From the NCBI GenBank assembly GCA_035293285.1, contig DATDOM010000066.1, positions 20,249 through 84,248 of the forward strand: a stretch of 64,000 nucleotides of DNA, given 5' to 3'. Position 1 is the first letter of the stretch. Each line of letters opens with the position of its first letter. This DNA is from Candidatus Nanoarchaeia archaeon (GTDB lineage Archaea > Nanobdellota > Nanobdellia > Woesearchaeales > GW2011-AR4). The notes beneath the pieces were generated by a model. It made no database searches, was not told where the DNA came from, and saw only the letters and a list, made by a program, of their open reading frames with translations. Below are positions 6,828-59,938 of the stretch, piece by piece. The position numbers were made by a program, and so were the translations under genes.

Positions 6828-6900
6828 AGGCCTCGCCATTTGCTCGGCGTACATTGCGCTGTAACCTTCCTGATTCGCCTGCATTTGGGCGAAGGTTAAT
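6828..6900 (+). repeat. GC-hairpin mosaic repeat, copy 1 (modules A-B)
   Basis: AGGCCTCGCCATTTGCTCGGCGTACAT followed by the hairpin TTCGCC-TGCATTT-GGGCGAA. Matches the other copies. Confidence 0.7.
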
Positions 6901-6914
6901 GAAAGAAATAAAAC

Positions 6915-7220
6915 TTATCTCAAATCTTTTACAGAATCCATTATCAAATCTTTTATTTTCTGCACTTCTTCTTTTTTGACTTCCTTAAACCAAAGCTGGT
7001 CCGGATATATTACAATTGTTGCGCCATTCCTGTTGCAAAAGCCAAGGCAGCCTGTCCTTGTCACCCATATAATTGAGCGAAGGCCTTTTTCTCTCACGAA
7101 ATTTTTTAATTCATGGTAGATTTCAAGGCTCCCAGTTTCAGAGCAGCATTCCCTGCCGTCAGTTCTTTCATTGGTGCATACAAGAATATGTTTTATCGGC
7201 CTTAATTGGATTTGTTGCAT
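6915..7220 (-). CDS. thioredoxin-like [2Fe-2S] ferredoxin
   Basis: The ATG at 7220 gives MQQIQLRPIKHILVCTNER. Cys pattern VCTNERTDGRECC...GCLGFCNRNG. The longer tracked ORF would overlap tRNA-Asn. Confidence 0.7.
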   Translation of the reverse strand: MQQIQLRPIKHILVCTNERTDGRECCSETGSLEIYHELKNFVREKGLRSIIWVTRTGCLGFCNRNGATIVIYPDQLWFKEVKKEEVQKIKDLIMDSVKDLR

Positions 7221-7229
7221 TTTAAAAAG

Positions 7230-7302
7230 CGCCTCCGACCAGACTCGAACTGGTGACCCCATGATTAACAGTCATGTGCTCTACCTGCTGAGCTACGGAG
7301 GC
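7230..7302 (-). tRNA. tRNA-Asn (anticodon GTT)
   Basis: The reverse complement reads GCCTCCGTAGCTCAGCAGGTAGAGCA-CATGA-CTGTTAA-TCATG-GGGTCACCAGTTCGAGTCTGGTCGGAGGCG. Confidence 0.9.
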
Positions 7303-7443
7303 AGAAGAGCTTAGAGGTTGAAAGTTTTGTTTAAATAGGTTTCGTTGAAAATTATTGTATTTGTTTTAAAGGGAGAAACTAAAACCGGCCTTCGGCGAAT
7401 GTTAGGCTCGCGCAATGGCTCGCATTATTGATGAACGGACAAT

Positions 7444-8622
7444 ATGGACAAATTTTTATACGGCAATAACAAAGTTGGAGAAATGCCAAAGAAAGAATCA
7501 AAAAAGACTGTGAGGGCTTTTGCGTTTGCTTCTTTTTTTAACGATATGGGCTCTGACATAATCGCTCCAATCTGGCCGCTGTTTGTAACTACATTTGCCG
7601 GCGCAAACATGCAGGTGCTTGGGCTTATCGACGGGATTGGAGAAGCTATCGTTTCAATTTCCCAGGCAGTTTCAGGATATCTTTCTGACCGCCTCAAGAA
7701 AAGAAAATTTTTTATTTGGTTAGGGTATTTATTCGGCGGCCTTTCGAGAATCGGATACGCACTTTCAACTGCGTGGCAGCATCTGATTCCATTCAGGATT
7801 CTTGACAGAGGAGGTAAAATAAGAAATTCCCCAAGAGATGCAATAGTTGCAGATTTGTCAGGAAAAGAAAAGGGCAAGAATTTTGGGTTCATAAGGGCCT
7901 TTGACAATCTTGGCGCTGTTTGCGGCATTTTGATAAGTATTTTCTTTTTAGGATTTTTTGGCTACAAAAAAATGTTTTTGCTTGCGGCAATTCCATCCGT
8001 TATTGCCGTCGCTATTGTCTTGATATTTGTAAAGGAAAGGAAGAACCACATAAAACTTCATAAAGGAATGTCGCTAAAAAACCTAAGCCCTCGGCTGAAA
8101 GTGTTTCTAGTTTCAAGCTCGCTTTTTTCGCTAAGCGCATTTAGCTATTCGTTTTTGCTCATTTATGCAAAAAATTTCGGATTTAAAATTGCAACAATAC
8201 CTGTATTATATTTGGTGTTTACTGCGGTTGCGTCTGCAACTTCAATTTATTTTGGCAAATTGTCAGATAAAGTTGGCAGGAAAAATATTTTGTATCTTGC
8301 TTATTTTTTTTGGATAATCAGCTGCGGGGCGTTTATCATTTTGCAAAGTTATTTTACAATAGTTTTAGCATTTGTCTTTTATGGGCTGCATAAAGGGGCA
8401 TTTGAGCCGGTGCAGAGGGCATTTGTTTCAGAGCTTTCTGTCCCGAGATTTAGGGCAAGCACGCTTGGAGGATTTCAGATGGTAATAGGGCTGATTGCAC
8501 TTCCCGCTTCGTTCCTGGCAGGGATTTTGTGGAGCAAAGTGAGCGTCAGCGCGCCGTTTTATTTTGCTATTGGACTGACTCTAATGTCTATGGTTATCTT
8601 GATCTTTGTAAAAGAAAAATAG
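7444..8622 (+). CDS. MFS-type transporter
   Basis: 392 aa, about 12 hydrophobic spans, with a GxLSDRLxKRK-like loop (GYLSDRLKKRKF) after TM2. Confidence 0.75.
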   Translation: MDKFLYGNNKVGEMPKKESKKTVRAFAFASFFNDMGSDIIAPIWPLFVTTFAGANMQVLGLIDGIGEAIVSISQAVSGYLSDRLKKRKFFIWLGYLFGGLSRIGYALSTAWQHLIPFRILDRGGKIRNSPRDAIVADLSGKEKGKNFGFIRAFDNLGAVCGILISIFFLGFFGYKKMFLLAAIPSVIAVAIVLIFVKERKNHIKLHKGMSLKNLSPRLKVFLVSSSLFSLSAFSYSFLLIYAKNFGFKIATIPVLYLVFTAVASATSIYFGKLSDKVGRKNILYLAYFFWIISCGAFIILQSYFTIVLAFVFYGLHKGAFEPVQRAFVSELSVPRFRASTLGGFQMVIGLIALPASFLAGILWSKVSVSAPFYFAIGLTLMSMVILIFVKEK

Positions 8623-19806: not shown

Positions 19807-19985
19807 TTACGCCTCGCCATTTGCTCGGCATACATGGGATTATCAACCTTGCAAAATTCGCCCCATTTGGGGAAGGTTAATATCTTACTTCGCAAGATTT
19901 CAAATCAAGGAAGAATTTACCCGCAATGCAACGGGTTGTGATAAAATAAATGCGGCCCAATGCAGGCCGCCTATCTATGCGGAGC
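19807..19985 (+). repeat. GC-hairpin mosaic repeat, copy 2 (modules A-B-F)
   Basis: TTACGCCTCGCCATTTGCTCGGCATACAT ... TTCGCCCCATTTGGGG ... CCCGCAATGCAACGGG ... GCGGCCCAATGCAGGCCGCCTATCTATGCGGAGC. Confidence 0.75.
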
Positions 19986-20058
19986 TGATTTAAGTTGAAA
20001 GTTAAACTCAAAGCTTTCAAACAAAAACCTTTAAATCAACCAATCCAAACCCATAGTT

Positions 20059-22313: not shown

Positions 22314-22385
22314 ATTTGTTTTTATTTGGTATTAGGGTTTTTTAAATTATATAGATTATTTTTGACTGAATGTTTTCTAAAATCC

Positions 22386-22559
22386 GCTCCGCGATAGATA
22401 GGCGGCCTGCATTGGGCCGCATTTATTACTCACAAACCGCTGCATTACGGGAGTTGCTTCTTTGATTTAAATTCTTACGAGATAAAGTATTGACTTTCGC
22501 CCAAATGAAGGCGAATGTGCGGATTGCTAACAATGTATGCCGAGCTGATGGCGAGGCCT
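22386..22559 (-). repeat. GC-hairpin mosaic repeat, copy 3 (modules A-B-F, inverted)
   Basis: The reverse complement aligns module by module with copy 2: GCTCCGCGATAGATAGGCGGCCTGCATTGGGCCGC ... ATGCCGAGCTGATGGCGAGGCCT. Confidence 0.75.
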
Positions 22560-22627
22560 AGATTGAGTAAGGATTTAAGAGTTATTTAGTAAAGAAAAAT
22601 AAAATCAAAGACAAAAGTAATTTAAAA

Positions 22628-23686
22628 TCAACCAATCTTATGCTTTATGCTCCAGGCCTTGAAAACATAGACTGCCATTGTGGCATAAACCATCACAAGT
22701 ATTGCCTTAAGCAGATAATCTGTGACAATCTCAAAGAATTCTATGTGAAAGGTTATCTTTAGGAGTATTATTATGAGCGTGGTGTAAGTGAGAGCAACAC
22801 TTAGCCTTGCAATCAAAGTAACAGGCACCGTCTTTTTCTTCCTTGCATAGAACATTTTCATTGCCCCGCTTACAAGCGGAGGTATCACAATAAGCACAAC
22901 CCAGCTTTTGTTTATGAAACCCTGAAGAAAAAGAAGTGAAAATGAGACTATTATCACGGTCCAGTCCGTAAATGAGTCAAGGCCCGAGCCAAGCTCGGTC
23001 TTTTGGTCCATCAGACGCGCTGAGATTCCGTCAAGCTTGTCGCTTAGAGTTATTACTGAAAAAATTATGAGAGCTATAAGGTGCTTGGAATTTACAATAT
23101 AATAAGCAAACGGGAAGATAAGCAAAAGCCGTGTAATTGTTATAAGGTTTGGAATATTTACAACTTTATAACCCGTCAGCTTCCTGATTTTTATGAGGTA
23201 GTCTATTCCTGAAACTACTGTAAGGAAAACTGCTATGAGCATTAGATAATACCCTGCCTTGAGGTCAAGAAGCACAAAAACAATGCCTATGCTTTGAAAA
23301 ACAGTCTTAAGTTTCCCTATGTTTCCTGCAGGGACAACGAGCTTGCTTGGCAAAAGATAAATCCTTATTGCAGTAAGTATCATCTCCCTGGAAATTATCA
23401 CTACTGCAATCCACAAGTCAAGCCCCCGGATTACGAGAAAAATCAGCGCTGTTGATATAAGCAGCTTGTCTGCTATCGGGTCAATTAGCTTTCCAAAATC
23501 AGTTACCTGCTTTTTCTTCCTTGCAATGTAGCCATCGAAAAAGTCAGAAACTGACAAAAGCACGAAGATTATTGCAGAAAATATGTTCTTGTGGGGAATT
23601 TTGGCAAGCAGAACTACGGCAAAAAGAGGAACCAAAGCAATCCTTATCAGAGTAATCCTGTTGGGAACATTAAATTTAAACTCCAT
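22628..23686 (-). CDS. tandem fusion of two CDP-alcohol phosphatidyltransferase domains
   Basis: 352 aa with two complete signatures: SDFFDGYIARKKKQVTDFGKLIDPIADKL and LSDKLDGISARLMDQKTELGSGLDSFTDW. Confidence 0.8.
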   Translation of the reverse strand: MEFKFNVPNRITLIRIALVPLFAVVLLAKIPHKNIFSAIIFVLLSVSDFFDGYIARKKKQVTDFGKLIDPIADKLLISTALIFLVIRGLDLWIAVVIISREMILTAIRIYLLPSKLVVPAGNIGKLKTVFQSIGIVFVLLDLKAGYYLMLIAVFLTVVSGIDYLIKIRKLTGYKVVNIPNLITITRLLLIFPFAYYIVNSKHLIALIIFSVITLSDKLDGISARLMDQKTELGSGLDSFTDWTVIIVSFSLLFLQGFINKSWVVLIVIPPLVSGAMKMFYARKKKTVPVTLIARLSVALTYTTLIIILLKITFHIEFFEIVTDYLLKAILVMVYATMAVYVFKAWSIKHKIG

Positions 23687-23751: not shown

Positions 23752-24050
23752 GATTCAAACACGGGTTTTGTTAAAAATTTAAAAATTGTATTTTAATAAG
23801 ATTTCAGGAATAGTTACGCCTCGCCATTTCGCTCGGCATACATGGATTATCAAATCCGCACACTCGCCCCATTTTGGGCGAAAATTTATCCGTGGGACTT
23901 CAAGTCCCACTTGATTCGCCGTTAACTCGCGCAACGGTTATCGGTGTTCATCCACGCCACGTAAAATTATTGAAATATTACGAGGCAAAATTTTACTGGA
24001 AACAAAAAATTTGCCGAGCGAAACTAGGGTTGGCTCAAGACAACGGATTT
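23752..24050 (+). repeat. GC-hairpin mosaic repeat, copy 4 (leader-A-B-C-D-E)
   Basis: Aligns with copy 6 over a ~65-nt AT-rich leader plus modules A-E. Contains the hairpin GTGGGACTTCAAGTCCCAC at 23892-23910. Confidence 0.75.
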
Positions 24051-24074
24051 AAGATTTGAATTTTAGAAATTAAA

Positions 24075-28863: not shown

Positions 28864-28935
28864 TCCGGATGAGAAAAAACTATCCTTATTTAATGTTTTG
28901 ATTTAAGTGATTTTTAATTTTACTTTTTAAAATAT

Positions 28936-29110
28936 GCTCCGCGATAGATAGGCGGCCTTCATTGGGCCGCGTGCATAATACGGTTGATTCGTTGCATTGC
29001 GAAGGTTGCTTTTGTGATTTGGTCGTAAAATAAAATGAGCAATTTTCGCCCAAATGGGGCGAGTGTACGGGTTTGATGAACAATAAATGCCGAGCGAAAT
29101 GGCGAGGCCT
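28936..29110 (-). repeat. GC-hairpin mosaic repeat, copy 5 (modules A-B-F, inverted)
   Basis: GCTCCGCGATAGATAGGCGGCCTTCATTGGGCCGC ... TTCGCCCAAATGGGGCGAG ... ATGCCGAGCGAAATGGCGAGGCCT. Confidence 0.75.
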
Positions 29111-29200
29111 AAATTTCTTTGTAGTTTTTATAAAATAACTGTAATTAGAGATTATTTATCAGAATAATTATCAAATCACAAGGATATTCTAAGTTAGGTA

Positions 29201-33475: not shown

Positions 33476-33551
33476 CAATCTGTCGCTTTGAGCGACCCTA
33501 GTTACACTCGGCGAAATTTGACAGACACTAAATTTCGCCTCGAAATATTGC
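33476..33551 (-). repeat. GC-hairpin mosaic repeat, copy 7 (module E only)
   Basis: The reverse complement reads TTCGAGGCGAAATTT-loop-AAATTTCGCCGAGTGTAACTAGG-GTCGCTCAAAGCGAC-AGATTG. Confidence 0.75.
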
Positions 33552-33617
33552 AATAAATAACGGAACTCTGATAGGCATCTTAGGTTAATTAATTGCCAGA
33601 AATCATTAAATTTTCAA

Positions 33618-35078: not shown

Positions 35079-35197
35079 AAATTCCCAAAAATGTTAGCAC
35101 TTAAAAGTAGTATTTTATACTACTAATATAAAAAGTTTTCTATTTGTCATTACTAAAAAATAGTTACAAATTTGAGAAACTGTTGTATTTTTGGATA

Positions 35198-35274
35198 CAA
35201 TCGGTCGCTTTAAGCGATCCTAGTTACACTCGGCAAAACTTCTTCTGCCATTAAAGTTTTGCCTCGGAATATTC
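35198..35274 (-). repeat. GC-hairpin mosaic repeat, copy 8 (module E only)
   Basis: The reverse complement reads TTCCGAGGCAAAAC-loop-GTTTTGCCGAGTGTAACTAGG-ATCGCTTAAAGCGAC-CGATTG. Confidence 0.75.
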
Positions 35275-35325
35275 ACTAATTTTTAAAAAGTGACGAAGCG
35301 CGGCTTTTTATAAATTCTACCAAAA

Positions 35326-40958: not shown

Positions 40959-43877
40959 GTGGCAGACGCGCATGGTGCAGAAGGTGGAGGAGATGCCAAG
41001 GGAGGAGGCAAAGCAGGCTTTTTTTCTGAATGGGTAGAAATTGGCAGGAATTGGTTTAAAAGAAAAGTACCATTTGTAGACAGGTTCAGATTTGGGAGAA
41101 GGAAAGTAGGTGACAGGCCGCATCCAATTCAATATGAGCTTCAGAGCACCTGGATAGAAAAAAATACCAATTTGTTTGGCACCACTTTAAAGAGGGTAGA
41201 AAACGAGTGGGCTAAATTGGCAGTTTCAATGGGTGAAGGGCAAGACCCTAACAAAGGTTTTCTGGAAGATCCTCAAGGGATAGTTCCTCTTTACCAGAAA
41301 CTCGGGGTTTATGCCGACTTGGAAAGGATACCCCTGGAAGTAAACTGGTTTGAAACAGGAACGGGATTTCATGAAAGCAAGTTGTCATTTGAGATGCCTG
41401 AAGAAGCTGTTTGGAGAAAATATGGCTGGATAGAAGATGAGGTAAAAAAATTAAAGAAAAACTCAAGCAAAATCAAAGCAATAAGTGATAATGTAAAGAT
41501 AAAGAGGATTTCACTTCACCCGGGAACAGTCATTCATGAAGGCAAAATTGAAGAAGATATCTATGCTTTTGGCATTGAAAGGGCAAAACAAATGATAGGG
41601 GAAATGACAGCTTATTCTGAAATACTTAGCGTAGGCTATTTAAGACAAAAAGGTGTCGGCACTGAAGTTAGAACAAAAATTGATAATCTGATAAAACAGT
41701 TTACTTCGTTATTCCAGCAAATTGCGGAAATGGAAAATGAGGCATATAGTTTGCTCCAGGATTTGACCGGTGATGCCAAAATACTAAAAGGAAGATGGGA
41801 ACTTATAGCTGACCAGACTGCGCCAGAGTCAACAAACGTATCAACAATAAGATTTCCCCATACTTTTAGAATTATCAGGCAATATGCACTTCTGGAAATA
41901 ACTGAAAAAATAGAGAAAAAAACCGGAATTACTACTGAGAGCTATGAAAATAAAAGAGTAGTTACTTCTTACATAGATCCCAATCAGCATACTGCTACCA
42001 GTAATATTTATACAATAGAAAAGCAGAAACTTAATGATGAATTGGCATCAATAAACAGCATTATGACTGACGAATTGAAGTATATAGTTCGTGATATTCA
42101 GAGTTTTGAGCAATTGGTTAACAATACTGGAAGTTTTGAGAATGTCATAAAAGGGATTATCAGAGCAGAAAGAAATAATTTGATTGGCGTTCTTAACAGC
42201 ACCGACCTGCCAGAAGCCAAAATACAGAATATAACAGATTTGATTACTCATCCCGATCCTACTTTGGCCAGTTTGCTCGAAGAATCACTCAAAAATATTG
42301 TTTCAATAATTTCAAGTGTGGTAAACTCCAGAAAATCCGCTGACGAAAAAGTGGATGATATAGAAAACTCGTTGCTCAATTCATTTAGTGCAATCAGGAT
42401 TATTGAAGAGTTCCTTGCATATCACGAAAATGACGTAGTGGGTATTCTAAAGGAACGGGATGATAGGGGGAATAAAAGAAAAGTTGATGATGTTTTTGAG
42501 GATATCAGGCATGTTTTACTCCCAAATGAATTGGCCACAAGCAGTATTATAGACACCATATTAAATGATAAAAATCATCGGGCTCAAATAAAAGCATTAA
42601 TCAATAAACAAAAGGATGAGTTTGTAACGGCAAGAACCATAATTCGATTCATACGAATTTCTGTAGTGAGGAAAAATCTAGATGATAAAGAAGCTGGATT
42701 AAAAACAAGGCTGGAAATACTCAATATCAAGAAATCTGACATTGAATTAAAATTTCTGGAAGAAAAAAAGAGGCTTCAGGATAGGTTAGACGAGATAGAT
42801 GGTATAAGTCCCCGCGATATGCAGGATATTCTTGATTCTATCAGGCCAAAAATTAGCGCCCCGAATGCCGGGACAAAAGGTTTTTACAAAAGACCGGAAG
42901 AGCTAAAGTATGGTTTAGATGAATATGGGTACCCGTTAGAAATTGATCCAGGTAATGGGATAGTGCTAATTGATAAATGGTGGCATGAGATAGGCCAAAA
43001 TGAATGGCAAATGAAGACAATTGCACAAAAACATGAAGGTGCGGATACATTAAGAAAAAATTTGGGCGTTACTGTCAATTATACTTCCAATCCTGGTGAA
43101 AAACCAAAATTAGGGGATATAAACATTGCCGGAACTCCTGCCAGAGAAATACGTTATGTAACTGATCAAAGATTTATAGGGCAGGTCGATATACTTGACT
43201 TAAGTGCGTTTATGTATTCTTATTGGGATGCTGTAAGAGATGATTTAAGGGATGGCAGATACCACCCCCATTCAAAAAGTACTGGTGACTATGTTATAGA
43301 AGCTATGGGGGGATATCATAAGGATTTGGGCGCACCTTATTCCAGAGACTGGGTTCCTGGCTTAAAAAGCAAGGGAATGTTTTTTTCGAGAAGGGGTGTT
43401 GTGCCATTAAAGCCAATTCAACTTCACATAGACGTGCCAACAGAGCTTATTAAAAGTAATCCTGAAACTTTCAATAAGCATATCCCTGATGATGAGAAAA
43501 CAGTAACAAGGGATTACGCCATGAGAATGCCGGACGGCAGTGTAGAAAAAGGAGAAAGGCATCCTTCAAAGTATAATCCAGCATTTGATAGAAGGTCGTG
43601 GCACATTGAAAAATATGTACATTGGGGAAGAATGTATTATTGGGAATGGGCAGGCGGAATAAACAGGTGGTCAGAAAATACATTCCCCCATGTTTCAACC
43701 AGAGGATTGGCATTGTACATAGCCCATCTTGCATCTACAGACACTTATTATTATAAAGAAGCAGAAGAGGCAATCGAAGGGCATTCGTTTGATTACGGAA
43801 CCAGGGGAATGGGTGCATTCCCAATTATGAACCCATTAAGCGGAAAAAACATAGTAGGGGAAGGCACAGAAAATTAA
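40959..43877 (+). CDS. 972-aa protein, unknown family: Gly/Lys-rich N-terminus, long helical middle, conserved C-terminal domain
   Basis: The GTG start directly abuts the upstream TAA, with AGGGGTG upstream. The C-terminal ~320 aa are paralogous to the C-terminus of the 832-aa protein. Confidence 0.8.
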   Translation: MADAHGAEGGGDAKGGGKAGFFSEWVEIGRNWFKRKVPFVDRFRFGRRKVGDRPHPIQYELQSTWIEKNTNLFGTTLKRVENEWAKLAVSMGEGQDPNKGFLEDPQGIVPLYQKLGVYADLERIPLEVNWFETGTGFHESKLSFEMPEEAVWRKYGWIEDEVKKLKKNSSKIKAISDNVKIKRISLHPGTVIHEGKIEEDIYAFGIERAKQMIGEMTAYSEILSVGYLRQKGVGTEVRTKIDNLIKQFTSLFQQIAEMENEAYSLLQDLTGDAKILKGRWELIADQTAPESTNVSTIRFPHTFRIIRQYALLEITEKIEKKTGITTESYENKRVVTSYIDPNQHTATSNIYTIEKQKLNDELASINSIMTDELKYIVRDIQSFEQLVNNTGSFENVIKGIIRAERNNLIGVLNSTDLPEAKIQNITDLITHPDPTLASLLEESLKNIVSIISSVVNSRKSADEKVDDIENSLLNSFSAIRIIEEFLAYHENDVVGILKERDDRGNKRKVDDVFEDIRHVLLPNELATSSIIDTILNDKNHRAQIKALINKQKDEFVTARTIIRFIRISVVRKNLDDKEAGLKTRLEILNIKKSDIELKFLEEKKRLQDRLDEIDGISPRDMQDILDSIRPKISAPNAGTKGFYKRPEELKYGLDEYGYPLEIDPGNGIVLIDKWWHEIGQNEWQMKTIAQKHEGADTLRKNLGVTVNYTSNPGEKPKLGDINIAGTPAREIRYVTDQRFIGQVDILDLSAFMYSYWDAVRDDLRDGRYHPHSKSTGDYVIEAMGGYHKDLGAPYSRDWVPGLKSKGMFFSRRGVVPLKPIQLHIDVPTELIKSNPETFNKHIPDDEKTVTRDYAMRMPDGSVEKGERHPSKYNPAFDRRSWHIEKYVHWGRMYYWEWAGGINRWSENTFPHVSTRGLALYIAHLASTDTYYYKEAEEAIEGHSFDYGTRGMGAFPIMNPLSGKNIVGEGTEN

Positions 43878-50505: not shown

Positions 50506-50940
50506 AATAGGGATAAATTCCTAGTGCCTAACTTTTCAATTGACACTCACTTTCGAGTATATGGGGTTCATGAAAATAAGTTTGGCAGCTGTAAAAGGGG
50601 GTAAAAGAACTAAATAAATTCTAAATCGTTAATAGTCCACGCGCCTAGTAAGAGGCAAGCCAGTACATCAGTCCCACTCATTGTCAAGGCACCATATCTT
50701 AAAGGTTTTAGTCTACCCTATTTCATTCGGATAGGGAGGGCAATTTGGGACTTTCAAAAAATTAAGAATTATGGCTTATCTCTTTAAGCTGCCCTGTAGA
50801 TCAAATCTGCCCCCCTGCCAGTATTCTTTTTTACCGGATTTATGAGTCAAACCATAAACTAAGAAAACTACATGAGTCACTTCCTGCTTTTAACTCTCAC
50901 TTCTTATGAGTAAGATTCATACTGAAAGTCTTCTTACAAC

Positions 50941-51130
50941 CATTTTTAGTTGCCTAAATGGATATTTAAAAAAATATAATATAAAGATTATGTTATAAAA
51001 TATATTAATTAACAAATAGTATATAACATAATTTTTATTAAATAACTTATAGAATAATATCTTTGAACAAATTAATTAAACTAAATTATTTAATAATTAA
51101 TAGTATATTTTAGTTATTTCTGAGTTTTTA
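50941..51130. other. extremely AT-rich non-coding block (possible DNA-unwinding element)
   Basis: About 190 nt of almost pure A/T with repeated ATAGTATAT(A/T). No ORF. Confidence 0.3.
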
Positions 51131-51311
51131 TGAGTAAAAATAGAATTTTTGAGAAAGCCAATGAAACAAAAAAATTTCGATAAAAAATCGAAAAATCATT
51201 CAGAAAAATTTGGCGGGTTTTTGTAATTTGACGTCTTTAAAATAAAAACAAATCCATAAAAAAATATTGCAATTACAAAAATTTATAAATCACCTATTGT
51301 GTGATTTTCCA

Positions 51312-51467
51312 ATGGACGAAAGACAGTGCAAAAAATGCAAGGCAAACATGCACAAAAAAGGCGTGATGCAGAGCGGAAATTCAAAATACGAGATTTACAT
51401 TTGCAATGAATGCGGAAGCGAAGAAATGAAGGCAATCAGTGTGAATGAAAAATATCACCGTCAGTAA
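51312..51467 (+). CDS. small Zn-ribbon protein (51 aa)
   Basis: CKKC...17 aa...CNEC. The ATG at 51312 is preferred over the TTG at 51267. Confidence 0.5.
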   Translation: MDERQCKKCKANMHKKGVMQSGNSKYEIYICNECGSEEMKAISVNEKYHRQ

Positions 51468-51665
51468 TTCTAAAATTTGCCTTATTTGTTCGAAGAATTT
51501 ACCCTACTTAAAGGTTCAGAATAAGGTATCGGATTGATTTTCTCGATGACAAAACTCAAGATGGTTTATTTTTGCAGATTTTTAGGTAAAAAAGAGTTCG
51601 CCTAATACGCATTATGCGAAGTTTTATATACTAGTATACACATCTTATGCAAAAAAGGTGTCTGA

Positions 51666-52481
51666 ATGCTTGGTATTCTAGAAACAGAACTTAAAATCAG
51701 GGGATTTAGCGATAGAACAGTGCAAAGTTATCTGGCACATAACAAGAGTTTTCTCCAGTTTATAAATAAAGAGCCTCAGCTGGCGGATACAAGTGATGCA
51801 AAAAGATACCTTGCGTATTTGATGTCAGACCGAAAATACAGCCCAAGGAGCGTAAATCTTGCCCTAAGTAGCGTGAAGTTCCTTTTTAGGGAGATCTTGC
51901 AAAACACGGCCTTTAATGCAGTCAGGGCACCAAAGATAGAGAAAAAGATCCCGACAGTTCTCTCAAAAGATGAGATAAGGAAGCTTTTGGACGCTGCAGT
52001 TAACCCAAAACACAGGCTTTTGATTAAGTTTCTTTACTCGACAGGCATGCGTGTGAGTGAATGTGTAAATATTCAAATTGATGACCTGGATTTTGATGAA
52101 AAAATCGGCAAAATAATGCACGGAAAAGGCAACAAGGAAAGGTATTTGATACTTTCTGAAGGACTTATCAAAGATCTCAAAAGCTACCTTGAGACCAAAA
52201 AAGACAATGGAGATTATGTGTTTTCAGTTAAAGGCAGTCCAATCACGACAAGACAGGCACAAAAAATTGTGAAGGAAACTGCAAAGAAAGCAGGCATAAA
52301 GAAGAGGGTTTTCTGCCATGCCCTGAGAAGCAGCTTTGCGACACATTTGCTTGAATCCGGGACGGACATAAGGGTTATACAGGAGCTTTTAGGGCATGCT
52401 GATCTTTCTACCACTCAGATTTACACAAAGGTGTCAACTGAGCAGCTAAAAAAAGTGAAAAATCCTCTTGATCAGCTATAA
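51666..52481 (+). CDS. xerA: tyrosine recombinase, XerA/XerC-D-like
   Basis: 271 aa. N-terminal SAM-like domain (RTVQSYLAHNKSF), catalytic residues in STGMRVSE, HALRSSFATHLL and LGHADLSTTQIYT. Confidence 0.85.
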   Translation: MLGILETELKIRGFSDRTVQSYLAHNKSFLQFINKEPQLADTSDAKRYLAYLMSDRKYSPRSVNLALSSVKFLFREILQNTAFNAVRAPKIEKKIPTVLSKDEIRKLLDAAVNPKHRLLIKFLYSTGMRVSECVNIQIDDLDFDEKIGKIMHGKGNKERYLILSEGLIKDLKSYLETKKDNGDYVFSVKGSPITTRQAQKIVKETAKKAGIKKRVFCHALRSSFATHLLESGTDIRVIQELLGHADLSTTQIYTKVSTEQLKKVKNPLDQL

Positions 52482-52512
52482 AATTAAAACTTTTAATAAA
52501 AAATAAAAAGAA

Positions 52513-53064
52513 TTAAAATCCAAACTCCTGCAAGCTGAACTGCAAGATGTTTTCTTTTGTCTGCAGAGTCTTGAATTCCTTATCAAGCCTCAAGTGCGGC
52601 TTAAGGTTGATATAGCGCTTTATTACAGGAACTCCCTTCTCGATAAGCGAAGTCACGTAGCTTGCCGCAAGATGTTCAGAAATCCCAAGTCTTTGCGCAA
52701 TATCTCCGTAAGTGACTGCGCCTTTCTCCTCTTCTAAAGTGTAGATTACCAAAAAAACTTCCTGCTCTTTTCTGTCAAGCCTTTTTACGTTAAATTCTTT
52801 TTTTCTTTCAGACGGCACCCCTGAACTGGCCTCAATATACATCTGAAGATTGTCAACTCTTGAGCTAAGCCTGTCAAGCTTGTTTTCAAGCTCGCAGATG
52901 TACTCAAAATTTGAAGAAATCTCATTAGTGTTCTCGTTAATTGACTGCAAATGCTCGTCAAACTCGTGCCTGATTTTCGTAAATTCAAGCTTTAGCATCC
53001 TGTTTAGCCTGGATATCTCCAGCCCCACCCCTCTAAGAAAAATTTTTCCTAAAATACCAATCAC
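52513..53064 (-). CDS. coiled-coil plus winged-HTH protein
   Basis: 183 aa. C-terminal QEVFLVIYTLEEEKGAVTYGDIAQRLGISEHLAASYVTSLIEKGVPV. Confidence 0.6.
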   Translation of the reverse strand: MIGILGKIFLRGVGLEISRLNRMLKLEFTKIRHEFDEHLQSINENTNEISSNFEYICELENKLDRLSSRVDNLQMYIEASSGVPSERKKEFNVKRLDRKEQEVFLVIYTLEEEKGAVTYGDIAQRLGISEHLAASYVTSLIEKGVPVIKRYINLKPHLRLDKEFKTLQTKENILQFSLQEFGF

Positions 53065-53107
53065 CCCCCAACCTCAACCAACGATGAGGGGTTTAAAAAA
53101 GTTTCGT

Positions 53108-53797
53108 TTAAGCCTGATTTGACCTCGACAATTTGTAGATGTAGTGTATTTCTTTGCCTTCCTTAATTACTGCAATTTCACCAGATTCTGCTATTTCATC
53201 CATTAAGCGGTAAAATGAGCTTTTTGAGCAAAATTTCTGCTCGTCAACGACCATTTCCTTAAGTTTTAGGGAAGATATTTTTCCATATTTTTTAATGTAG
53301 GAGATTGCCATGCTCTTGACGTATTCCTTTGAATTTCTTGTGATGTTTTTGATGATTTTTTCCTTTATTGAGTACTTTTTGTCTTCAAGCCTTTCAAGCC
53401 TTCTTTTTATAGTCGTCAAATCCTCACTTGGTTGCACAGGAATTTCTCTTTGCACTGCCCGAACAGGCTGCATTTGGGCCTGTGGCACCCTCACTCTTGA
53501 AAGCTCTTCAACCCTATAATTCAAGTCCCTTAGCTTTGCCATTATGCCTTCAAATGAGTAATAATCGTCAATTATTTTTCTTATTTCTTCTCTTGTTTTT
53601 GGCATGTAATTCAACTCATTTTTCATCTGCCTAATGACGTCTTCTTGCTCTAATGATTTTTTGTAAAAAAAGTTGACCCATTCAAAGAGGTTTGAGGTAT
53701 CTTTTTTGACATTTGAAAATGACTTTTTTACAATCAAGTTAATCTGCATGAGTCTCTTTTCTGTTTCAATATTTTTTTGCTCCTTTTTCCAAAACAT
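53108..53797 (-). CDS. coiled-coil plus winged-HTH protein
   Basis: 229 aa. C-terminal KISSLKLKEMVVDEQKFCSKSSFYRLMDEIAESGEIAVIKEGKEIHY. Confidence 0.6.
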   Translation of the reverse strand: MFWKKEQKNIETEKRLMQINLIVKKSFSNVKKDTSNLFEWVNFFYKKSLEQEDVIRQMKNELNYMPKTREEIRKIIDDYYSFEGIMAKLRDLNYRVEELSRVRVPQAQMQPVRAVQREIPVQPSEDLTTIKRRLERLEDKKYSIKEKIIKNITRNSKEYVKSMAISYIKKYGKISSLKLKEMVVDEQKFCSKSSFYRLMDEIAESGEIAVIKEGKEIHYIYKLSRSNQA

Positions 53798-53837
53798 AAA
53801 AACAGATAAATACTAATTATTATTTAAATATATTTAT

Positions 53838-53947
53838 TTCTGGGACTATCTTGGGACTATGCTGGGACTGGATTGGGACTATCTTTAGATGTCAAAATAA
53901 TTTTCTGGGACTATCTTGGGACTATGCTGGGACTGGATTGGGACTAT
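53838..53947 (+). repeat. iteron array: two exact 45-bp units, each with four TGGGACT heptamers at 11-bp phasing
   Basis: TTCTGGGACTATCTTGGGACTATGCTGGGACTGGATTGGGACTAT occurs at 53838-53882 and again at 53903-53947. Heptamers start at 53841/52/63/74 and 53906/17/28/39. Confidence 0.85.
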
Positions 53948-54472
53948 AATTTTTTAATAGAATTAAAGTAAGTTTTAGAAAAATTGATAGGTCATTCAAA
54001 GATAGTTCAAAAAATTGGACAAAAAAATGGATTGATTTTGGCAAGATTTTTGCAATAAAAAACAAGGGAAAAATGGTATAAAAGGACCTTATAAAAGCCG
54101 CAAAAAAGAGGAGCTTTTAAATGAAATTTTGTGGGAATTTGGCTTTAAAATAGGCTGAATTCTGCAGAAAAGAAGGTTAAAAGTGAGAACCAATGTGAGT
54201 CAACTTGGTCGATATAAGGGCTATTTTAGCCTAGGAATGGTATTTTCAGCCATATTCTTAGATAAATAAGGATGTAAAGGTGATTTACGAGCAAAAAGTG
54301 AGGTTTTAAGATTTATTTTCTATATAGAAAATTTAAATATTTATATGTAAAAAGGCAAAGCAGCGGGAAGAAGAGAGATTTGACGAGATTTATTGAGATA
54401 TTATTTACAATATTGAAAAAATATAAACAAATATAAATATAAGAAGTTTACTCATGAAAAGTGAGAGTTCAA

Positions 54473-55111
54473 ATGAGTAAAAAGATGTCAAAATCGGCCT
54501 TGGCTATTATTTTATCACGATTAGAAGGGTTTTCTAAGCCAAAAGTGGACCAGGAGCAGTATGTAACAGACAGTGAAGTGGCTGCATTTAACCTCTGGAA
54601 CGCCTATATATTGGGAGATATAGAAGAAAAAGAGATAGCTGACATTGGGTGCGGCACTGGAATTCTTGGTATAGGGACCCTAGTGCTTGGCGCAAAGAAG
54701 GTCTTCTTTGTGGACTCTGACAAAAGTGCCCTGGAAACGCTAAAAATCAATATTTCAAAGGTGAGAAGTGAGGGTTACATCATAAATGGTGCCTTTGAAA
54801 TCATGAATAAGGATATAAAAGACCTGGATTTTAAGGCAGAGGTAGTAGTACAAAACCCGCCTTTTGGGACCAAAAACAAGCATGCCGACGTCATATTTCT
54901 TGAAAAGGCACTAAAAACAGCCAAAATTATCTATTCATTCCATAAAAGCGAGACTAAGTCATATATAAACAAGTTTTGCAATGAGAAAGGCGCAAAAATT
55001 ACCCATGTTTGGGACTTTGACTTCCCACTCAAATCTACCTATAAGTTTCATAATAAGAGGATTCACAGAATAAATGTAAGCTGCTTTAGGATAGAATCAG
55101 GTCATTTATAA
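54473..55111 (+). CDS. METTL5/COG2263-type N6-adenine RNA methyltransferase
   Basis: DIGCGTGILGIG and the VVQNPPFG catalytic motif. The ATG at 54473 is preferred over the GTG at 54461. Confidence 0.75.
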   Translation: MSKKMSKSALAIILSRLEGFSKPKVDQEQYVTDSEVAAFNLWNAYILGDIEEKEIADIGCGTGILGIGTLVLGAKKVFFVDSDKSALETLKINISKVRSEGYIINGAFEIMNKDIKDLDFKAEVVVQNPPFGTKNKHADVIFLEKALKTAKIIYSFHKSETKSYINKFCNEKGAKITHVWDFDFPLKSTYKFHNKRIHRINVSCFRIESGHL

Positions 55112-56732: not shown

Positions 56733-57150
56733 AATTCACACACGGGTTTTGTTAACAATTTAAAAACTGTAGTTTTATAAAATTTTAGGAATAGTTACGC
56801 CTCGCCATTTCGCTCGGCATATGCGGACAAACCAAAATTATTTTAAATTTGTTTGGTTTGTCCTGACGTTCAGACACATAAGTAATAACAATAAAATTGT
56901 ATGTCTGAACGCATTGTTCATCAAACCTGCACATTCGCCCCATTTCGGGCGAAAACTTATCCGTGGGACTTTGAGCCCCACTTGATTCCGCCGGGGCTCG
57001 CGGAAGGGTTGTCGGTGTTCATCCACGTCGTAAAGTCATTGCCATGTTCCGAGGCAAATTTTAGTGCGGGGACTTGTGAGAGCTCGCTCTCACTCGCTCA
57101 GGTCCCCAAAAATTTGCCGAGTGTAACTATTGTCGTCAAACGACCGATTG
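56733..57150 (+). repeat. GC-hairpin mosaic repeat, copy 6 (leader-A-[2 inserted hairpins]-B-C-D-E), the longest copy
   Basis: Collinear with copy 4. Extra hairpins are GGACAAACCAAA..TTTGGTTTGTCC and GTTCAGACA..TGTCTGAAC. The module E loop carries a nested hairpin GGGGAC..GTCCCC. Confidence 0.75.
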
Positions 57151-57229
57151 AAGTAAGAGGTCCGAACTAGGTATTTAATCAAGTAATACAATTCAAAATC
57201 TTTTTATAAGAAGGTGTATTCCAGAGCTT

Positions 57230-57934: not shown

Positions 57935-57940
57935 GGCTTT

Positions 57941-59359
57941 ATGGATAAATATGAACAATTTAATGAAGTGCTGAAAAATGCCGCAGTTGAGTTTGGCAAG
58001 ATAGACAAAAAAGAAGTGATAAGGGTAGTAAGCCATCTTGATGCCGACGGCATAAGCGCCTGCTCACTCCTCCTTAAATTGCTAAACAATGAAAGCAGGA
58101 AATACTCAGTATCAATTGTGCAGCAGCTTAACAGAAAAGTTGTGGAGCAGCTTTCGCTTGAACCCTACAACAATTTTATTTTCACTGACATAGGCTCCGG
58201 CGCGCTAAGGGAAATAAAGGAGCTTTTGCCGAAGAAGAAAATTATAATTCTTGACCACCACATAATTCCAGATGTCGGAGAATTAAACGGAATTGTCCTT
58301 GTAAACCCGCACCTTTGCGGAATAGACGGAGGAAAGGAAATAAGCGGCGCTGGTGTTGTATTCAAGTTTGCCTGCTGTGTTGACCCTGCAATTGAGGATT
58401 ATGCGCACATTGCAATAGTCGGGGCATTAGGAGACGTGCAGGAGCAAAATGGATTTTTGAGGCTGAACCAGGAGATTCTTGATACTGCAATAAAAAGAAA
58501 CAAGATTAATGTGACTAAAGGCCTCAGGATTTTTGGAGGGCAGACAAAGCCACTTCACAAGGCGCTTGAATACTGCACTGACCCTTATATTCCCGGAGTT
58601 TCTGGAAGCGAAAGCGGTGCAATACAATTCCTTTCACAAATAGGAATAGACCCAAGAAACGGAAGCGGCTGGAAAAAAATCGTGCATTTGGATGAAGAAG
58701 AGATGAAAAAACTGGTTACTGGTGTAATAATGCGGCGCCTTGGGGAGGCAAACCCTGAAGATGTGCTTGGGGATGTCTACATTTTGCCTCACGAGCAAGA
58801 AGAAAGCCCGACAAGGGATGCAAAAGAGTTTGCAACACTTCTGAATGCTTGCGGCAGGCTAGGACGGGCATCTTATGGAATCGGGGCATGCCTAGGCGAC
58901 AAAAAAATAAAGCAGCAGGCAATAAGAAGCCTTGCAGACTACAAAAAAGAAATTGTCAATGCACTAAACTGGTACCATGATAACAAATTCAGTGATGATG
59001 TATTTTGGGGAAAGGGGTATGTGATAATCAACGCAAAGGACAAGGTGATGTCAACAATGATTGGAACATTGGCATCAATCCTTTCAAAATCAAATGTTAT
59101 GGTCAATAATTCTTTTATCCTTTCAATGGCGCAGTCAAATGACGGCAACACAAAAGTGTCTTTGAGAAGCGCAAAAACCGGAAACACTTCTGACCTGAAA
59201 AAAATAATTGAAGAAGCAATAGTTGGAATAGAAAATGCAGAGTCAGGCGGGCACCAGAACGCTGCCGGCGCTGTTTTTCCGACGGTGCACGAGGAAAGGT
59301 TTACAATTGCCGCAAAAGAAATTCTTTCGAAGTATGCGCAGGAAGAGAAAATAAGCTGA
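57941..59359 (+). CDS. DHH-family RecJ-like (GAN/Cdc45-like) exonuclease
   Basis: 472 aa. SHLDADGISA, ILDHH, GDVQEQNG, and a DHHA1-like C-terminus GGHQNAAGA. Confidence 0.8.
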   Translation: MDKYEQFNEVLKNAAVEFGKIDKKEVIRVVSHLDADGISACSLLLKLLNNESRKYSVSIVQQLNRKVVEQLSLEPYNNFIFTDIGSGALREIKELLPKKKIIILDHHIIPDVGELNGIVLVNPHLCGIDGGKEISGAGVVFKFACCVDPAIEDYAHIAIVGALGDVQEQNGFLRLNQEILDTAIKRNKINVTKGLRIFGGQTKPLHKALEYCTDPYIPGVSGSESGAIQFLSQIGIDPRNGSGWKKIVHLDEEEMKKLVTGVIMRRLGEANPEDVLGDVYILPHEQEESPTRDAKEFATLLNACGRLGRASYGIGACLGDKKIKQQAIRSLADYKKEIVNALNWYHDNKFSDDVFWGKGYVIINAKDKVMSTMIGTLASILSKSNVMVNNSFILSMAQSNDGNTKVSLRSAKTGNTSDLKKIIEEAIVGIENAESGGHQNAAGAVFPTVHEERFTIAAKEILSKYAQEEKIS

Positions 59360-59397
59360 TAATTCAAACTAAAATAGAATACTTAAAATATTATAAA

Positions 59398-59670
59398 TTA
59401 CAAAATTGCCCTAATGCCGTCAATCTTTTCTGCAACATCAGCGCCGGTTTTTGTTAAAGTAAGAAGTTTTAACCTTCCCTGCTTTTCAAAATTTATAAGG
59501 CCGGCTTTTTGCATCTGCTGGAGAATTTTGACAACGTGGGAATATGTGCAGTCAACCTGCTTTGCAATTGAGGAAGCATAAATCTCGCTTTTTGCGTTCC
59601 TTAGCTCTACGAGCATCATTGCCGGCTTTTCGCGAAAAAAAACATTGAATATTTCCTTATTGTTGACCAT
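59398..59670 (-). CDS. small winged-HTH transcriptional regulator
   Basis: 90 aa. EIYASSIAKQVDCTYSHVVKILQQMQKAGLINFEKQGRLKLLTLT. Confidence 0.65.
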   Translation of the reverse strand: MVNNKEIFNVFFREKPAMMLVELRNAKSEIYASSIAKQVDCTYSHVVKILQQMQKAGLINFEKQGRLKLLTLTKTGADVAEKIDGIRAIL

Positions 59671-59793
59671 TTATACAACCCCCAAACATCTCTTTCAGAA
59701 TATAGTTTACATTAGCTAATTCATATTTAAACATTTCTATTTTAGCCTGGAAGTTTTATTTTGAAAAATTTTGATTTCCTAGATTATAAAATT

Positions 59794-59938
59794 GGGCTCC
59801 GCCAATAGGTACTCGCGCCCGCAATAGCGCAATATATATGTATATATTAGACGTTGAAATTATTGAATGTTTTCGAGGCGAATTTTAGTGTAAGTCAAAA
59901 TTCGCCGAGTGTAACTGCTGTGAGCGAAGCGAACGGAT
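59794..59938. repeat. GC-hairpin mosaic repeat, copy 9 (F-like arm inverted, plus module E)
   Basis: GCTCCGCCAATAGG... is followed by TTCGAGGCGAATTTT-loop-AAAATTCGCCGAGTGTAACTGCTG. Confidence 0.6.

Follow-up and report, generated by a model that had tools for sequence, protein, structure and literature searches.

The window, a stretch of 64,000 nucleotides of one contig, carries nine GC-rich islands in the spacers between its genes (Table 1). The source organism is archaeal, with its closest relatives in protein comparison named Candidatus Woesearchaeota or Nanoarchaeota, and on this sequence evidence the host genome is assigned to Candidatus Woesearchaeota. The host is a tiny-genomed DPANN archaeon. 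Copies are 75-420 nt long and intergenic, and fragments also occur. Their flanking genes stand in every relative orientation, and the elements keep no consistent direction with respect to them. Searches of the window with nhmmer profiles and a covariance model detected no copy beyond the nine; two extra copies lie within 10 kb of the same contig directly upstream, which gives 11 copies in 74 kb. About 15 further copies were found on short groundwater metagenome contigs, adjoining unrelated housekeeping genes, and core-gene neighbours of these other copies include eRF1, Spt5, aIF5A, RNase PH, tRNase Z and NMD3. In other assemblies the elements are break points of contigs.

Table 1. Repeat copies and nested insertions in the window (positions are those of the window)
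Feature	Position	Strand	Components	Location
c1, singlet A-B	6800-6900	+	AT-rich stretch, ATAG, hairpin A 6830-6848, linker, hairpin B 6874-6894	tRNA-Ile / tRNA-Asn spacer
c2, type I inverted doublet	19807-19993	+	A 19811-19829, B 19857-19875, F1 19920-19935, F2 19952-19970, tail GCGGAGC 19979-19985; 160 bits	co-directional gene pair, upstream of phosphatidylserine decarboxylase gene
c3, type I inverted doublet	22378-22585	-	A 22539-22557 (loop CAUCA), B 22495-22515, F1 22436-22451, F2 22402-22420, tail 22386-22392; AT-rich box at each end; 179 bits	between two convergent CDP-alcohol phosphatidyltransferase genes
c4, type II mosaic	23753-24052	+	65-nt AT-rich leader, AATAGTTAC, A 23818-23837, B 23863-23883, C 23892-23910, D, E stem-loop 23981-24018, terminal hairpin 24029-24044	divergent CDP-OH transferase / PHP spacer
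c5, type I inverted doublet	28923-29138	-	A 29089-29108, B 29044-29063, F1 28988-29003, F2 28952-28970, tail 28936-28942; TATA-like TTTTATAAAA box 19 nt outside hairpin A, mirrored TTTTAAAA box outside tail; 173 bits	between NUDIX and diphthamide-synthesis genes
c6, solo E-T unit	33473-33558	-	E stem-loop 33507-33542, G-C variant of fourth stem pair; GTGTAACT 33500-33507; terminal hairpin 33482-33496	
c7, solo E-T unit	35194-35282	-	E stem-loop 35229-35266, compensatory C-G pair; terminal hairpin 35205-35217	
c8, type II mosaic	56734-57153	+	leader, A 56799-56818, B 56934-56954, C 56963-56981, D, E 57050-57121, terminal hairpin 57132-57144	upstream of undecaprenyl-diphosphate synthase gene
N insert, separate 91-nt two-hairpin element	56822-56912	.		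nested in c8 between hairpin A and linker
Nested hairpin	57067-57106	+	GGGGAC...GUGAGAG-CUCG-CUCUCAC...GUCCCC	inserted in c8 E loop
c9, variant mosaic	59781-59943	+	AT-box, GCTCCGC, CAATAG, A/F2-type hairpin variant (GCGC...GCGC), AT spacer, E stem-loop 59874-59909, mini-hairpin GCGAAGC 59922-59934	

An earlier note had described the nine islands as one non-coding repeat family with interchangeable modules. A blastn-short self-comparison showed that they are genuine homologous repeats: the modules lie where they had been placed, differences of 1-2 nt aside, and the links between copies are far beyond chance (c4 and c8, 92% over 88 nt, E = 2e-29; c2 and c3, 96% over 48 nt, E = 3e-15; c6 and c9, 91% over 46 nt, E = 6e-12). 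Divergence between copies is 7-28%, and thus there has been no recent burst. Two open reading frames overlie these copies (23874-24059 and 56901-57170), but they read the homologous DNA in different frames in five of the six aligned blocks of c4 and c8; no reading frame common to the copies was found in these blocks, and 1-nt indels occur within conserved segments. The family is non-coding. A search against Rfam 15 gave no family match to the elements at gathering or permissive thresholds, and the view that they are not a described archaeal family held. The only matches reaching gathering score were three tRNAs. The sole overlap at E <= 5, an antisense mir-31_2 match inside the N insert of c8, is at chance level (it scores 20 bits where gathering needs 97; E = 1.7).

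Two different hairpins, A and B, make up a unit of about 75 nt. The A-type unit consists of an AT-rich box, 17-19 nt, NTAG (sometimes with TTAC), a GC-rich imperfect hairpin with a C/UGCAUU-like loop, and ATWYATT; the B-type unit consists of CACA, a hairpin and RRTTGCT. Module F had been regarded as its own kind of sequence, but it proved to be A-B in inverted orientation. F1 is module B inverted (CACA, TGCATT and RRTTGCT are common to B and the reverse complement of F1), and F2 with its tail is module A inverted, its reverse complement reading GCTCCGC-N-GATAG, GCGGCC-TGCATTG-GGCCGC and ATTTATT against NTAG, GCCTCGC-CATTTC-GCTCGGC and ATWYATT in A. Both the A-type and the inverted F2-type hairpins carry a 5' tag (ATAG, CTAG or TTAG, sometimes then TTAC). 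The reverse strands of type I copies score 10-31 bits against the type I covariance model (E down to 6e-6), and alignment of copies with their own reverse complements gives z = 1.8-4.1. Because A and F2, and likewise B and F1, are the same units in opposite orientations, the A-B-F arrangement is an inverted doublet. In this type I form, 175 nt long, two A-B pairs are inverted around a variable spacer (A B, then B' A'). Singlets are single A-B pairs (c1, L202, L211); type II adds C, D and an E-T unit, which is related to A but inverted, to the A-B pair; solo E-T units are another mosaic form, and there are fragments as well. The modules are indeed interchangeable and used in both orientations, as in c9 and L207.

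The proposed stem covariation was borne out for the type I alignment, the E stem and the terminal hairpin. In the type I alignment pairing is seen in 88.8% of cells, compared with 33-47% when partners are slid, and two-sided changes occur in 6 pairs, against 1.9 +/- 1.0 in shuffles (none of 500 shuffles reached 6). Three positions of the E stem show compensatory changes. Terminal hairpin stems are wholly different between copies (GUCGCU/AGCGAC, GUCGU/ACGAC, GAAAAUUC/GAAUUUUC and GUUG/CAAC), the A' variant GCCGCAC/GUGCGGC restores full pairing, and F2 stems vary as GCGGCC, GCGCGCC and GCCGCCGC. Hairpins A, B, F1 and F2 are 16-21 nt each. Hairpin A has a conserved tandem mismatch, which is U.C/C.U in the top strand and G.A/A.G in the bottom one, and a tandem G.A is present in E; such conserved imperfections are characteristic of the hairpins that HUH enzymes read. 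The exact 12-nt complementarity of A and E that had been pointed out in c4 (TTTCGCTCGGCA/TGCCGAGCGAAA) is present and was found again in L194; it may serve as a helix in RNA or as an inverted repeat in DNA.

Orthologous intergenic regions were compared in related Woesearchaeota, which have about 65% protein identity and keep gene order in two synteny blocks (PHP / CDP-OH x2 / MTase / PSD and NUDIX / Dph). Their spacers are 0-42 nt and without the element. The CDP-OH transferase / PHP spacer (c4 site) is 42 nt in L215, the convergent CDP-alcohol phosphatidyltransferase genes (c3 site) overlap in relatives, and the NUDIX / diphthamide-synthesis spacer (c5 site) is 32-33 nt in L212 and L215, whereas the spacers in this contig are 388, 314 and 337 nt. 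In L218 the NUDIX / diphthamide-synthesis spacer is 170 nt and the element is absent, and nhmmer and covariance model searches of about 100 kb from relatives gave no match. Because the relatives keep gene order with short, element-free spacers, the copies are insertions; the comparison shows addition at the DNA level, at places where the spacer otherwise measures 0-42 nt or the genes overlap. From these relatives, all of them distant, we infer that the family is mobile.

The elements in turn tolerate and attract nested insertions. The N element entered c8 at GCATAT^ATT, which reads AAT^ATATGC on the opposite strand, and produced no target duplication; copy X1 (L226) has an insert at the same site, and L203 carries an inverted, diverged N at another AAT^ATATGC site. 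The nested hairpin in the E loop of c8 recurs as the same insert, at the same E-loop position, in L198 (1991-2029). The earlier note had assigned nested hairpins and the second copy of module D to its copy 6; the copy in question is its eighth island, 56733-57150.

In about 13 of 19 copies an AT-rich, TATA-like box stands 15-19 nt (mostly 17-19) outside the A-type hairpin, as part of the repeated unit; doublets have it in mirrored form at their two ends. Native promoters have the same kind of box, with a TATA-to-ATG spacing of 20-31 nt (mostly 20-23). Since the boxes match native TATA boxes at near-native spacing, inward transcription from them is possible. One could then regard the copies as multi-copy genes for small structured RNAs, each with its own TATA promoter and a start at or just inside hairpin A, whose regulatory, scaffold or antisense function would reside in the RNA; we consider this rather unlikely. 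Type I RNAs would end at an oligo-U run (GCGGAGC-NNN-UUUUA), and the RNAs of the two types would have the 5' A-B domain in common but different 3' domains. Consistent with structured RNAs, type II folds much better than shuffled sequence (z = -5.8, c4), with a closing A:E helix of 9-12 bp that retains a G.U pair in c8; loop sequences are conserved, and CAUU in the loops of A and B can pair with AAUG in those of F1 and F2. Hairpins A and F2 are also nearly invariant while linkers and spacers drift, although the metagenome copies were chosen by an exact module-A pattern, which inflates the apparent conservation of A. However, the putative terminator is the promoter box mirrored at the far end of the doublet at equal spacing, which fits a palindromic DNA element, and the U-run is absent from type II. 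The sense fold of type I is no better than shuffles (z = -1.1) and the antisense fold is better (z = -2.2), copy X2 does not preserve the predicted A2:tail helix, and the place of the TAGTTAC/GTAACTA complementarity is upstream of where transcription is predicted to start. The use of modules in both orientations, the inconsistent orientation to neighbours, and relatives that do without the family and whose spacers are too short for an equivalent gene also argue against RNA genes.

The presence of a TATA box next to a palindrome also raises the idea of non-mobile host regulatory cassettes, in which a host protein would bind a palindromic operator or terminator and insulate or regulate the neighbouring genes. 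A GC-rich palindrome right downstream of TATA is in the classical position of an archaeal repressor site, the flanking genes occur in every relative orientation, and the 3' end of c4 provides the PHP gene with its TATA-like box, 20 nt ahead of the start codon. Yet the A, A' and F2 stems vary with pairing kept, which favours hairpin formation over a fixed double-stranded recognition sequence; relatives run the same operons without the elements; and the truncated and nested copies resemble decay rather than regulation. Such cassettes are therefore very improbable.

Classical MITEs, that is, deletion derivatives of insertion sequences with DDE transposases that move by cut-and-paste via terminal inverted repeats, would share the size, the intergenic position and the occurrence of fragments. 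Type I copies have imperfect inverted termini (GCCTCGCCAT / ATCGCGGAGC, 8/10), and type II copies have ATTCAA...TTGAAT plus AATAGTTAC...GTAACTATT. The conserved inverted repeats, however, are imperfect and subterminal, no target-site duplication was found at any boundary tried, the contig contains no related insertion sequence, and the interior is put together, mosaic-like, from hairpin units that also occur independently, instead of being one deleted insertion sequence. We thus regard a MITE origin as improbable. In archaeal MITEs such as the Sulfolobus SM families, the terminal inverted repeats and the target duplications match known IS families; the present family resembles these MITEs as small, non-coding, dispersed intergenic repeats, but such IS-matching features were not found here. 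BOX elements of Streptococcus pneumoniae and Correia elements of Neisseria are likewise intergenic, modular A-B-C-type mosaics with stable secondary structures, and Correia elements, which have clear terminal inverted repeats and a TA duplication, also bear promoter-like sequences at the ends. Their sequences and hosts are unrelated to this family, and the likeness is an analogy only.

The earlier note had likened the family to REP/BIME mosaics or MITEs; this likeness is supported, and the inverted-doublet layout strengthens the REP/BIME side of it. The unit of bacterial REPs and REPINs is a GC-rich, hairpin-forming imperfect palindrome of 20-40 nt; a genome has tens to hundreds of copies, all extragenic, and REPINs have a cognate RAYT gene, usually single-copy and flanked by repeats. 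With REP, BIME and REPIN elements the present family shares imperfect palindromes that are short and GC-rich and bear a short conserved tag on one side, singlets and inverted doublets around a variable spacer, mosaics of units and linker motifs in both orientations, and an extragenic, locally dense distribution. It also hosts other site-specific insertion elements, as bacterial REPs are targets of such elements, e.g. ISPpu9, as described in PMC8450116. It differs in its archaeal host, in having two different hairpins per unit and a TATA-like box on each A-type unit, and in its tag, NTAG instead of the GTAG or CGTC of bacterial REPs. Comparison with the palindrome-associated elements (PATEs) derived from IS200/IS605 reveals hairpins with conserved imperfections, absence of target duplication and, for the nested N element, a fixed short target, AAT^ATATGC, in c8, X1 and L203. 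PATEs insert 3' of a fixed tetra- or pentanucleotide and leave no duplication. Their end hairpins, however, are subterminal, direct and on the same strand, whereas they are inverted in type I, and no tnpA or tnpB partner was seen in the 85-kb contig.

On balance, we favour, by a modest preference, lineage-specific, non-autonomous, hairpin-based dispersed repeats that in their organisation are the archaeal counterpart to the REP/BIME/REPIN elements of bacteria. A trans-acting enzyme would copy the elements by recognising the tagged imperfect hairpins in single-stranded DNA; it may be of the HUH/Y1 type, as for REP-RAYT and IS200/IS605, and IS200-type TnpA (Y1 subclass 1.1) is the sole Y1 subclass that PMC6006769 reports in archaea. 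It should be noted that no gene for a RAYT, an IS200-type or another HUH/Y1 transposase was detected in the 85-kb contig, where the only recombinase is a tyrosine integrase (51666-52481) within a seemingly unrelated island. This, together with the divergent tag and the lack of a recent burst, speaks against mobile repeats, and the near-invariance of A and F2 with drifting linkers could fit a function of each copy, as RNA or as a protein-binding site. The AT-rich boxes may drive inward transcription, which would yield hairpin-rich RNAs. Judged from its sequence, the family is most plausibly one of REP/BIME-like mobile repeats, possibly transcribed, and it would place this kind of organisation in an archaeal host, where, according to one preprint, REP/BIME/REPIN elements were not detected.

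We read all nine GC-rich islands listed in the earlier note (c1 to c9 in their order along the window), and each contained the modules, A to F, quoted for it. That they form one repeat family was also confirmed, as similarity in a blastn-short self-search was well above chance: c4 and c8 were 92% identical over 88 nt (E = 2e-29) and 85% over 109 nt in a second segment, c2 and c3 96% over 48 nt, c3 and c5 97% over 35 nt, c6 and c9 91% over 46 nt, and c6 and c7 92% over 37 nt. A repeat finder recovered identical families in the window, and neither nhmmer profiles of the modules nor an A-B-F covariance model detected a tenth copy there. Every copy is intergenic. The pair of ORFs previously cited for a non-coding nature indeed reads homologous DNA in different frames in 5 of 6 aligned blocks, and single-base indels are present in conserved segments; the family is therefore non-coding. 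A small peptide in the region from F2 (the second hairpin of F) to the tail was ruled out because a 1-nt indel between c2 and c3 breaks its frame. Nor is this a known RNA family: Rfam searches at gathering and permissive thresholds showed no noteworthy match to the elements at E <= 5 (at the gathering score, the window yielded three tRNAs only), inspection of the elements by eye revealed no conserved motifs of RNase P or SRP and no K-turn, C/D or H/ACA boxes, and a literature search for a described repeat or RNA family of Woesearchaeota or DPANN found nothing relevant.

The proposed stem covariation was borne out by pairing statistics and by compensatory variants. In the alignment of type I copies (A-B-F; c2, c3 and c5 in the window), 88.8% of cells were paired versus 33-47% with slid partners, and both-side changes occurred at 6 pairs versus 1.9 +/- 1.0 in shuffles (0/500). 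Compensatory stem variants were found in F1, the first hairpin of F (CCCG/CGGG, UUCG/CGAA and CCCU/AGGG), in F2 (GCGGCC, GCGCGCC in metagenome locus L207 and GCCGCCGC in X1, a copy upstream of the window) and in B (UUCACC/GGGUGAA in L198). The E stem showed compensatory variation at three positions, and the terminal hairpin after it (T) has wholly different stems between copies. The A stem, GCCUCGC/GCUCGGC, has a conserved tandem U.C/C.U mismatch; in X2, the other upstream copy, the stem reads GCCGCAC/GUGCGGC and pairs fully. A tandem G.A/A.G occurs at the base of E in every intact copy. The strand could not be told from G.U versus A.C in hairpin B. Three other structures were considered and rejected. 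RNAalifold proposed long-range pairing of the tail with the 3' arm of A, but an A' variant disrupts it and keeps the local A hairpin through compensatory changes. The stretch from B to F1 is no guide-like variable region, as it can be aligned across copies and has simply diverged, and the R'/R'' box consensus of integron attC sites was unmatched by eye.

The six-module scheme of the earlier note stood as far as the presence of the modules is concerned, but these are not six unrelated kinds; they are oriented hairpin units. On the opposite strand, the 3' end of type I reads GCTCCGC-N-GATAG GCGGCC-TGCATTG-GGCCGC ATTTATT, and the 5' end, NTAG GCCTCGC-CATTTC-GCTCGGC ATWYATT, has the same layout. 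Reversed F1 is CACAA CCCG-TTGCATTG-CGGG or GA TTCG-TTGCATTG-CGAA GGTTGCT and mirrors B, CACA TTCGCC-TGCATTT-GGGCGAA RRTTGCT. Type I is thus an inverted doublet (A-B, then B'-A') around a diverging spacer, since its reversed 3' end shares the A layout and reversed F1 mirrors B. In agreement, the type I reverse strand scores 10-31 bits against the sense covariance model, and alignment of type I copies with their own reverse complements lies above shuffles (z = 1.8-4.1). Copies with A-B only are singlets or truncated doublets, one of which (L189) retains the spacer as far as F1. In type II (A-B-C-D-E; c4 and c8), the E unit is related to A in inverted orientation: AATAGTTAC lies ahead of A and GTAACTATT after E, and CTCGGCA and GCCTCG of A are complementary to TGCCGAG and CGAGGC of E, respectively. 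In the variant mosaic c9 an A/F2-type unit is directly joined to E-T, and in L207 the linker-B segment is inverted.

The units are themselves interrupted. A 91-nt two-hairpin insertion (N) lies between hairpin A and the linker in c8, and comparison with L211 places its junction at GCATAT^ATT with zero duplicated bases. A similar insert occupies the same site in X1, and a diverged N, inverted with respect to the element it interrupts, is located between F1 and F2 in L203 at AAT^ATATGC. Four compensatory stem changes distinguish the N of c8 from that of L203. N is a separate, site-specific, hairpin-based mobile element targeting the main family; a BHB intron was ruled out because both orientations relative to the host element occur. 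REPs are likewise described as targets of some bacterial IS elements (PMC8450116). The E loop of c8, like that of the L198 copy, also contains a nested hairpin of 40 nt. In the related Woesearchaeota contig L212, the Rpr2 gene is lengthened (176 aa versus 104 aa in L215), and a GC-rich stretch at its 5' end (3131-3225, …GAGAGCTCAACCTGCTCGCGAGAACGCGAGCTCGCG…CTCTCTCGCTCGCTCAGCTCAC…) resembles the nested hairpin of c8 (GTGAGAGCTCGCTCTCACTCGCTCAG) and may be another small hairpin insert common to the group.

Local gene order is kept by three groups of related Woesearchaeota contigs, one conserved order being PHP, two CDP-alcohol phosphatidyltransferases, methyltransferase and phosphatidylserine decarboxylase and a separate one a NUDIX gene adjoining a diphthamide-synthesis (Dph) gene. 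The PHP/transferase junction measures 42 nt in L215 and 388 nt in the window, where it contains c4; the two convergent transferase genes overlap in relatives and are separated by 314 nt, with c3, in the window; and the NUDIX/Dph junction is 32-33 nt in L212 and L215, 170 nt in L218 and 337 nt, with c5, in the window. Neither nhmmer nor a covariance model detected family members in ~100 kb of related Woesearchaeota. The copies are insertions into otherwise minimal spacers. The best relatives of one window protein were named Candidatus Woesearchaeota or Nanoarchaeota and, other than the same organism (99% identity), were only ~60-66% identical; since no relatives above ~66% protein identity were found, we infer the gain at each site over a long distance. 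Classical MITEs would be a quite improbable source of these insertions, as target-site duplications were absent at several candidate boundaries checked. Other assemblies contain contigs of the same organism (L222, L223, L225 and L002) that begin or end inside elements, which is expected because the elements are dispersed repeats; they break metagenome assemblies of this lineage. Two loci from sister metagenomes, L196 and L197, share a type I element and its left flank at 99% identity, diverge in the last ~12 nt of the element and have unrelated right flanks; either copies have recombined or the assembly is chimeric at the repeat.

The window lies within an 85.7-kb metagenome contig (ENA ERZ27254861 k141_1131249), on which X1 and X2 are located within the 10 kb upstream of the window. 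Together with the nine islands, they make 11 copies in 74 kb, from which a genome-wide number is an extrapolation. A scan of JGI metagenomes with an exact 21-base module-A pattern matched 23 loci: 16 were AT-rich contigs with true family members and 7 were chance matches in GC-rich DNA. One true locus (L199) is the window itself, and in the other 15 the element is the sole similarity to the window, the neighbors being unrelated core genes (eRF1, Spt5, aIF5A, RNase PH, tRNase Z, NMD3, acetyl-CoA synthetase and others). A single organism or population is the probable source of most of these loci, since L199 is identical to the window. Invariance of A among JGI copies is partly ascertainment owing to the exact pattern, and A does vary in loop and even stem (X1, X2, c3). 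A genome-collection scan with GCCTCGCCATN{2,3}GCTCGGC proved too loose, giving 120 chance matches in GC-rich bacteria (L004-L123), confirmed as such by nhmmer. Viral contigs scanned for modules A, E and F2 gave zero or chance matches only and no family member.

Other features of the window are collected in the table. The region with the S-adenosylhomocysteine hydrolase gene resembles a free-standing homing-endonuclease cassette by which the gene-end copy was brought in or left behind, and the region with the tyrosine recombinase is a possible integrated element. A run of large ORFs with zero Pfam matches begins just downstream of c7, a solo E-T copy. The repeats of the PKD/Big_9 genes, in which an CACAGGCGGCCTGT motif recurs, are ordinary domain repeats with no relation to the hairpin family.

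Coordinates of further features in the window
Feature	Position	Strand	Remarks
Apparent homing-endonuclease cassette	60055-63263	-
S-adenosylhomocysteine hydrolase gene	61998-63263	-
LAGLIDADG/HTH ORF	60872-61882	-	After hydrolase gene
Unknown ORF	60308-60853	-	After LAGLIDADG/HTH ORF
Duplicate of hydrolase gene 3' end	60128-60282 vs 62071-62225		77% identical; called as 67-aa AdoHcyase fragment
Possible integrated element	50881-54480
Tyrosine recombinase	51666-52481		Within possible integrated element
Two small HTH or unknown ORFs		Opposite to recombinase	Within possible integrated element
Iteron-like tandem repeats	53837-53958		Rich in TGGGACT; two exact 46-nt copies
Bracketing inverted repeat	50881-50921 / 54440-54480		41 nt, 78%
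Co-directional large ORFs	35503-43877		380 aa (weak AAA-ATPase hits), then 832, 605, 972 aa
Two adjacent large PKD/Big_9 surface-protein genes	2575-6286	-	Common internal DNA repeats, e.g. 4225-4320 vs 5123-5218 at 79%
Element N	56822-56912		Nested in c8
TTAAA(A)TCAACCAATC	20038-20056; 22613-22631		Beside c2; beside c3

A TATA-like octamer (TTTTATAA, CTTAAAA, TTTAAAA) lies outside hairpin A in ~13 of 19 copies, mostly at a distance of 17-19 nt (15 nt in L195). The bases between it and hairpin A, TAGTTTGRRA-ATAGTTAC, are homologous among copies, which makes the box part of the unit. In the genome's own genes, the ATG follows the TATA box by 20-31 nt (mostly 20-23), and tRNA 5' ends follow it by 23-27 nt; the boxes of the units would therefore start transcription at hairpin A or a few bases within it, and transcription from them is possible. 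What looks like an oligo-T terminator beyond the type I tail (GCGGAGC-NNN-TTTTA) mirrors the AT box, and this mirrored box lies at equal spacing from the inverted F2; the two boxes may be convergent promoters or belong to a long terminal inverted repeat. Such boxes bear on the alternative of a small-RNA gene family whose function resides in the RNA. Folding z-scores were -5.8 (sense) and -4.4 (antisense) for type II (c4); for type I (c5), they were -1.1 and -2.2, respectively, leaving this form without strand-specific support for a functional RNA. We regard the small-RNA alternative as rather unlikely, and host regulatory cassettes as very improbable.

Many protein genes of the window (e.g., at 20038, 57200 and 23710) also have a TATA-like octamer so close to the ATG that no room is left for a leader, which suggests that mRNAs of this genome are mostly leaderless. 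ATAG/TTTAG motifs are frequent just 5' of gene starts and likewise 5' of hairpin A. The near-identical 17-nt strings TTAAA(A)TCAACCAATC beside c2 (the decarboxylase TATA region) and beside c3 may reflect chance or a further small repeat.

Y1 transposases reported from archaea are of the IS200 type only (PMC6006769). The family described here is non-coding, lineage-restricted and dense; its tagged imperfect hairpins form a mosaic of singlets, inverted doublets and composites, and another small element targets it. Its organisation is the same as that of bacterial REP/BIME/REPIN elements, which one preprint describes as undetected in archaea, and we lean towards a REP/BIME-like mobile-repeat family. 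Propagation would depend on an enzyme acting in trans and recognising the hairpins in single-stranded DNA, a specific HUH mechanism being less certain than the REP/BIME-like reading itself. No gene for such an enzyme was found in the 85-kb contig, and a cognate protein among the neighbors of the copies was rejected, as all are unrelated housekeeping genes. A joint reading, which we consider unlikely, is that this is the first archaeal REPIN/BIME-type replicator system, in a streamlined DPANN host, with an own TATA promoter per tagged hairpin unit and convergent complementary hairpin RNAs, and thus both mobile DNA and a self-expressed small-RNA gene. To our knowledge, an own TATA promoter on each tagged hairpin unit has no precedent in bacteria. 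If the joint reading is true, the element RNA might help its own propagation or host regulation.

DPANN archaea have among the smallest and most compact cellular genomes, and in relatives the same genes overlap or stand 30-40 nt apart; here, structured repeats wedged in the spacers make up ~2.5% of the DNA. More than 25 natural variants provide a ready set for testing how hairpins are recognised, how archaeal promoters work and whether small RNAs are expressed. Even compact DPANN genomes can let selfish or co-opted hairpin elements flourish, and an archaeal analogue of the bacterial elements would extend the host range known for hairpin-based replicators and point to an undiscovered archaeal enzyme handling hairpins.
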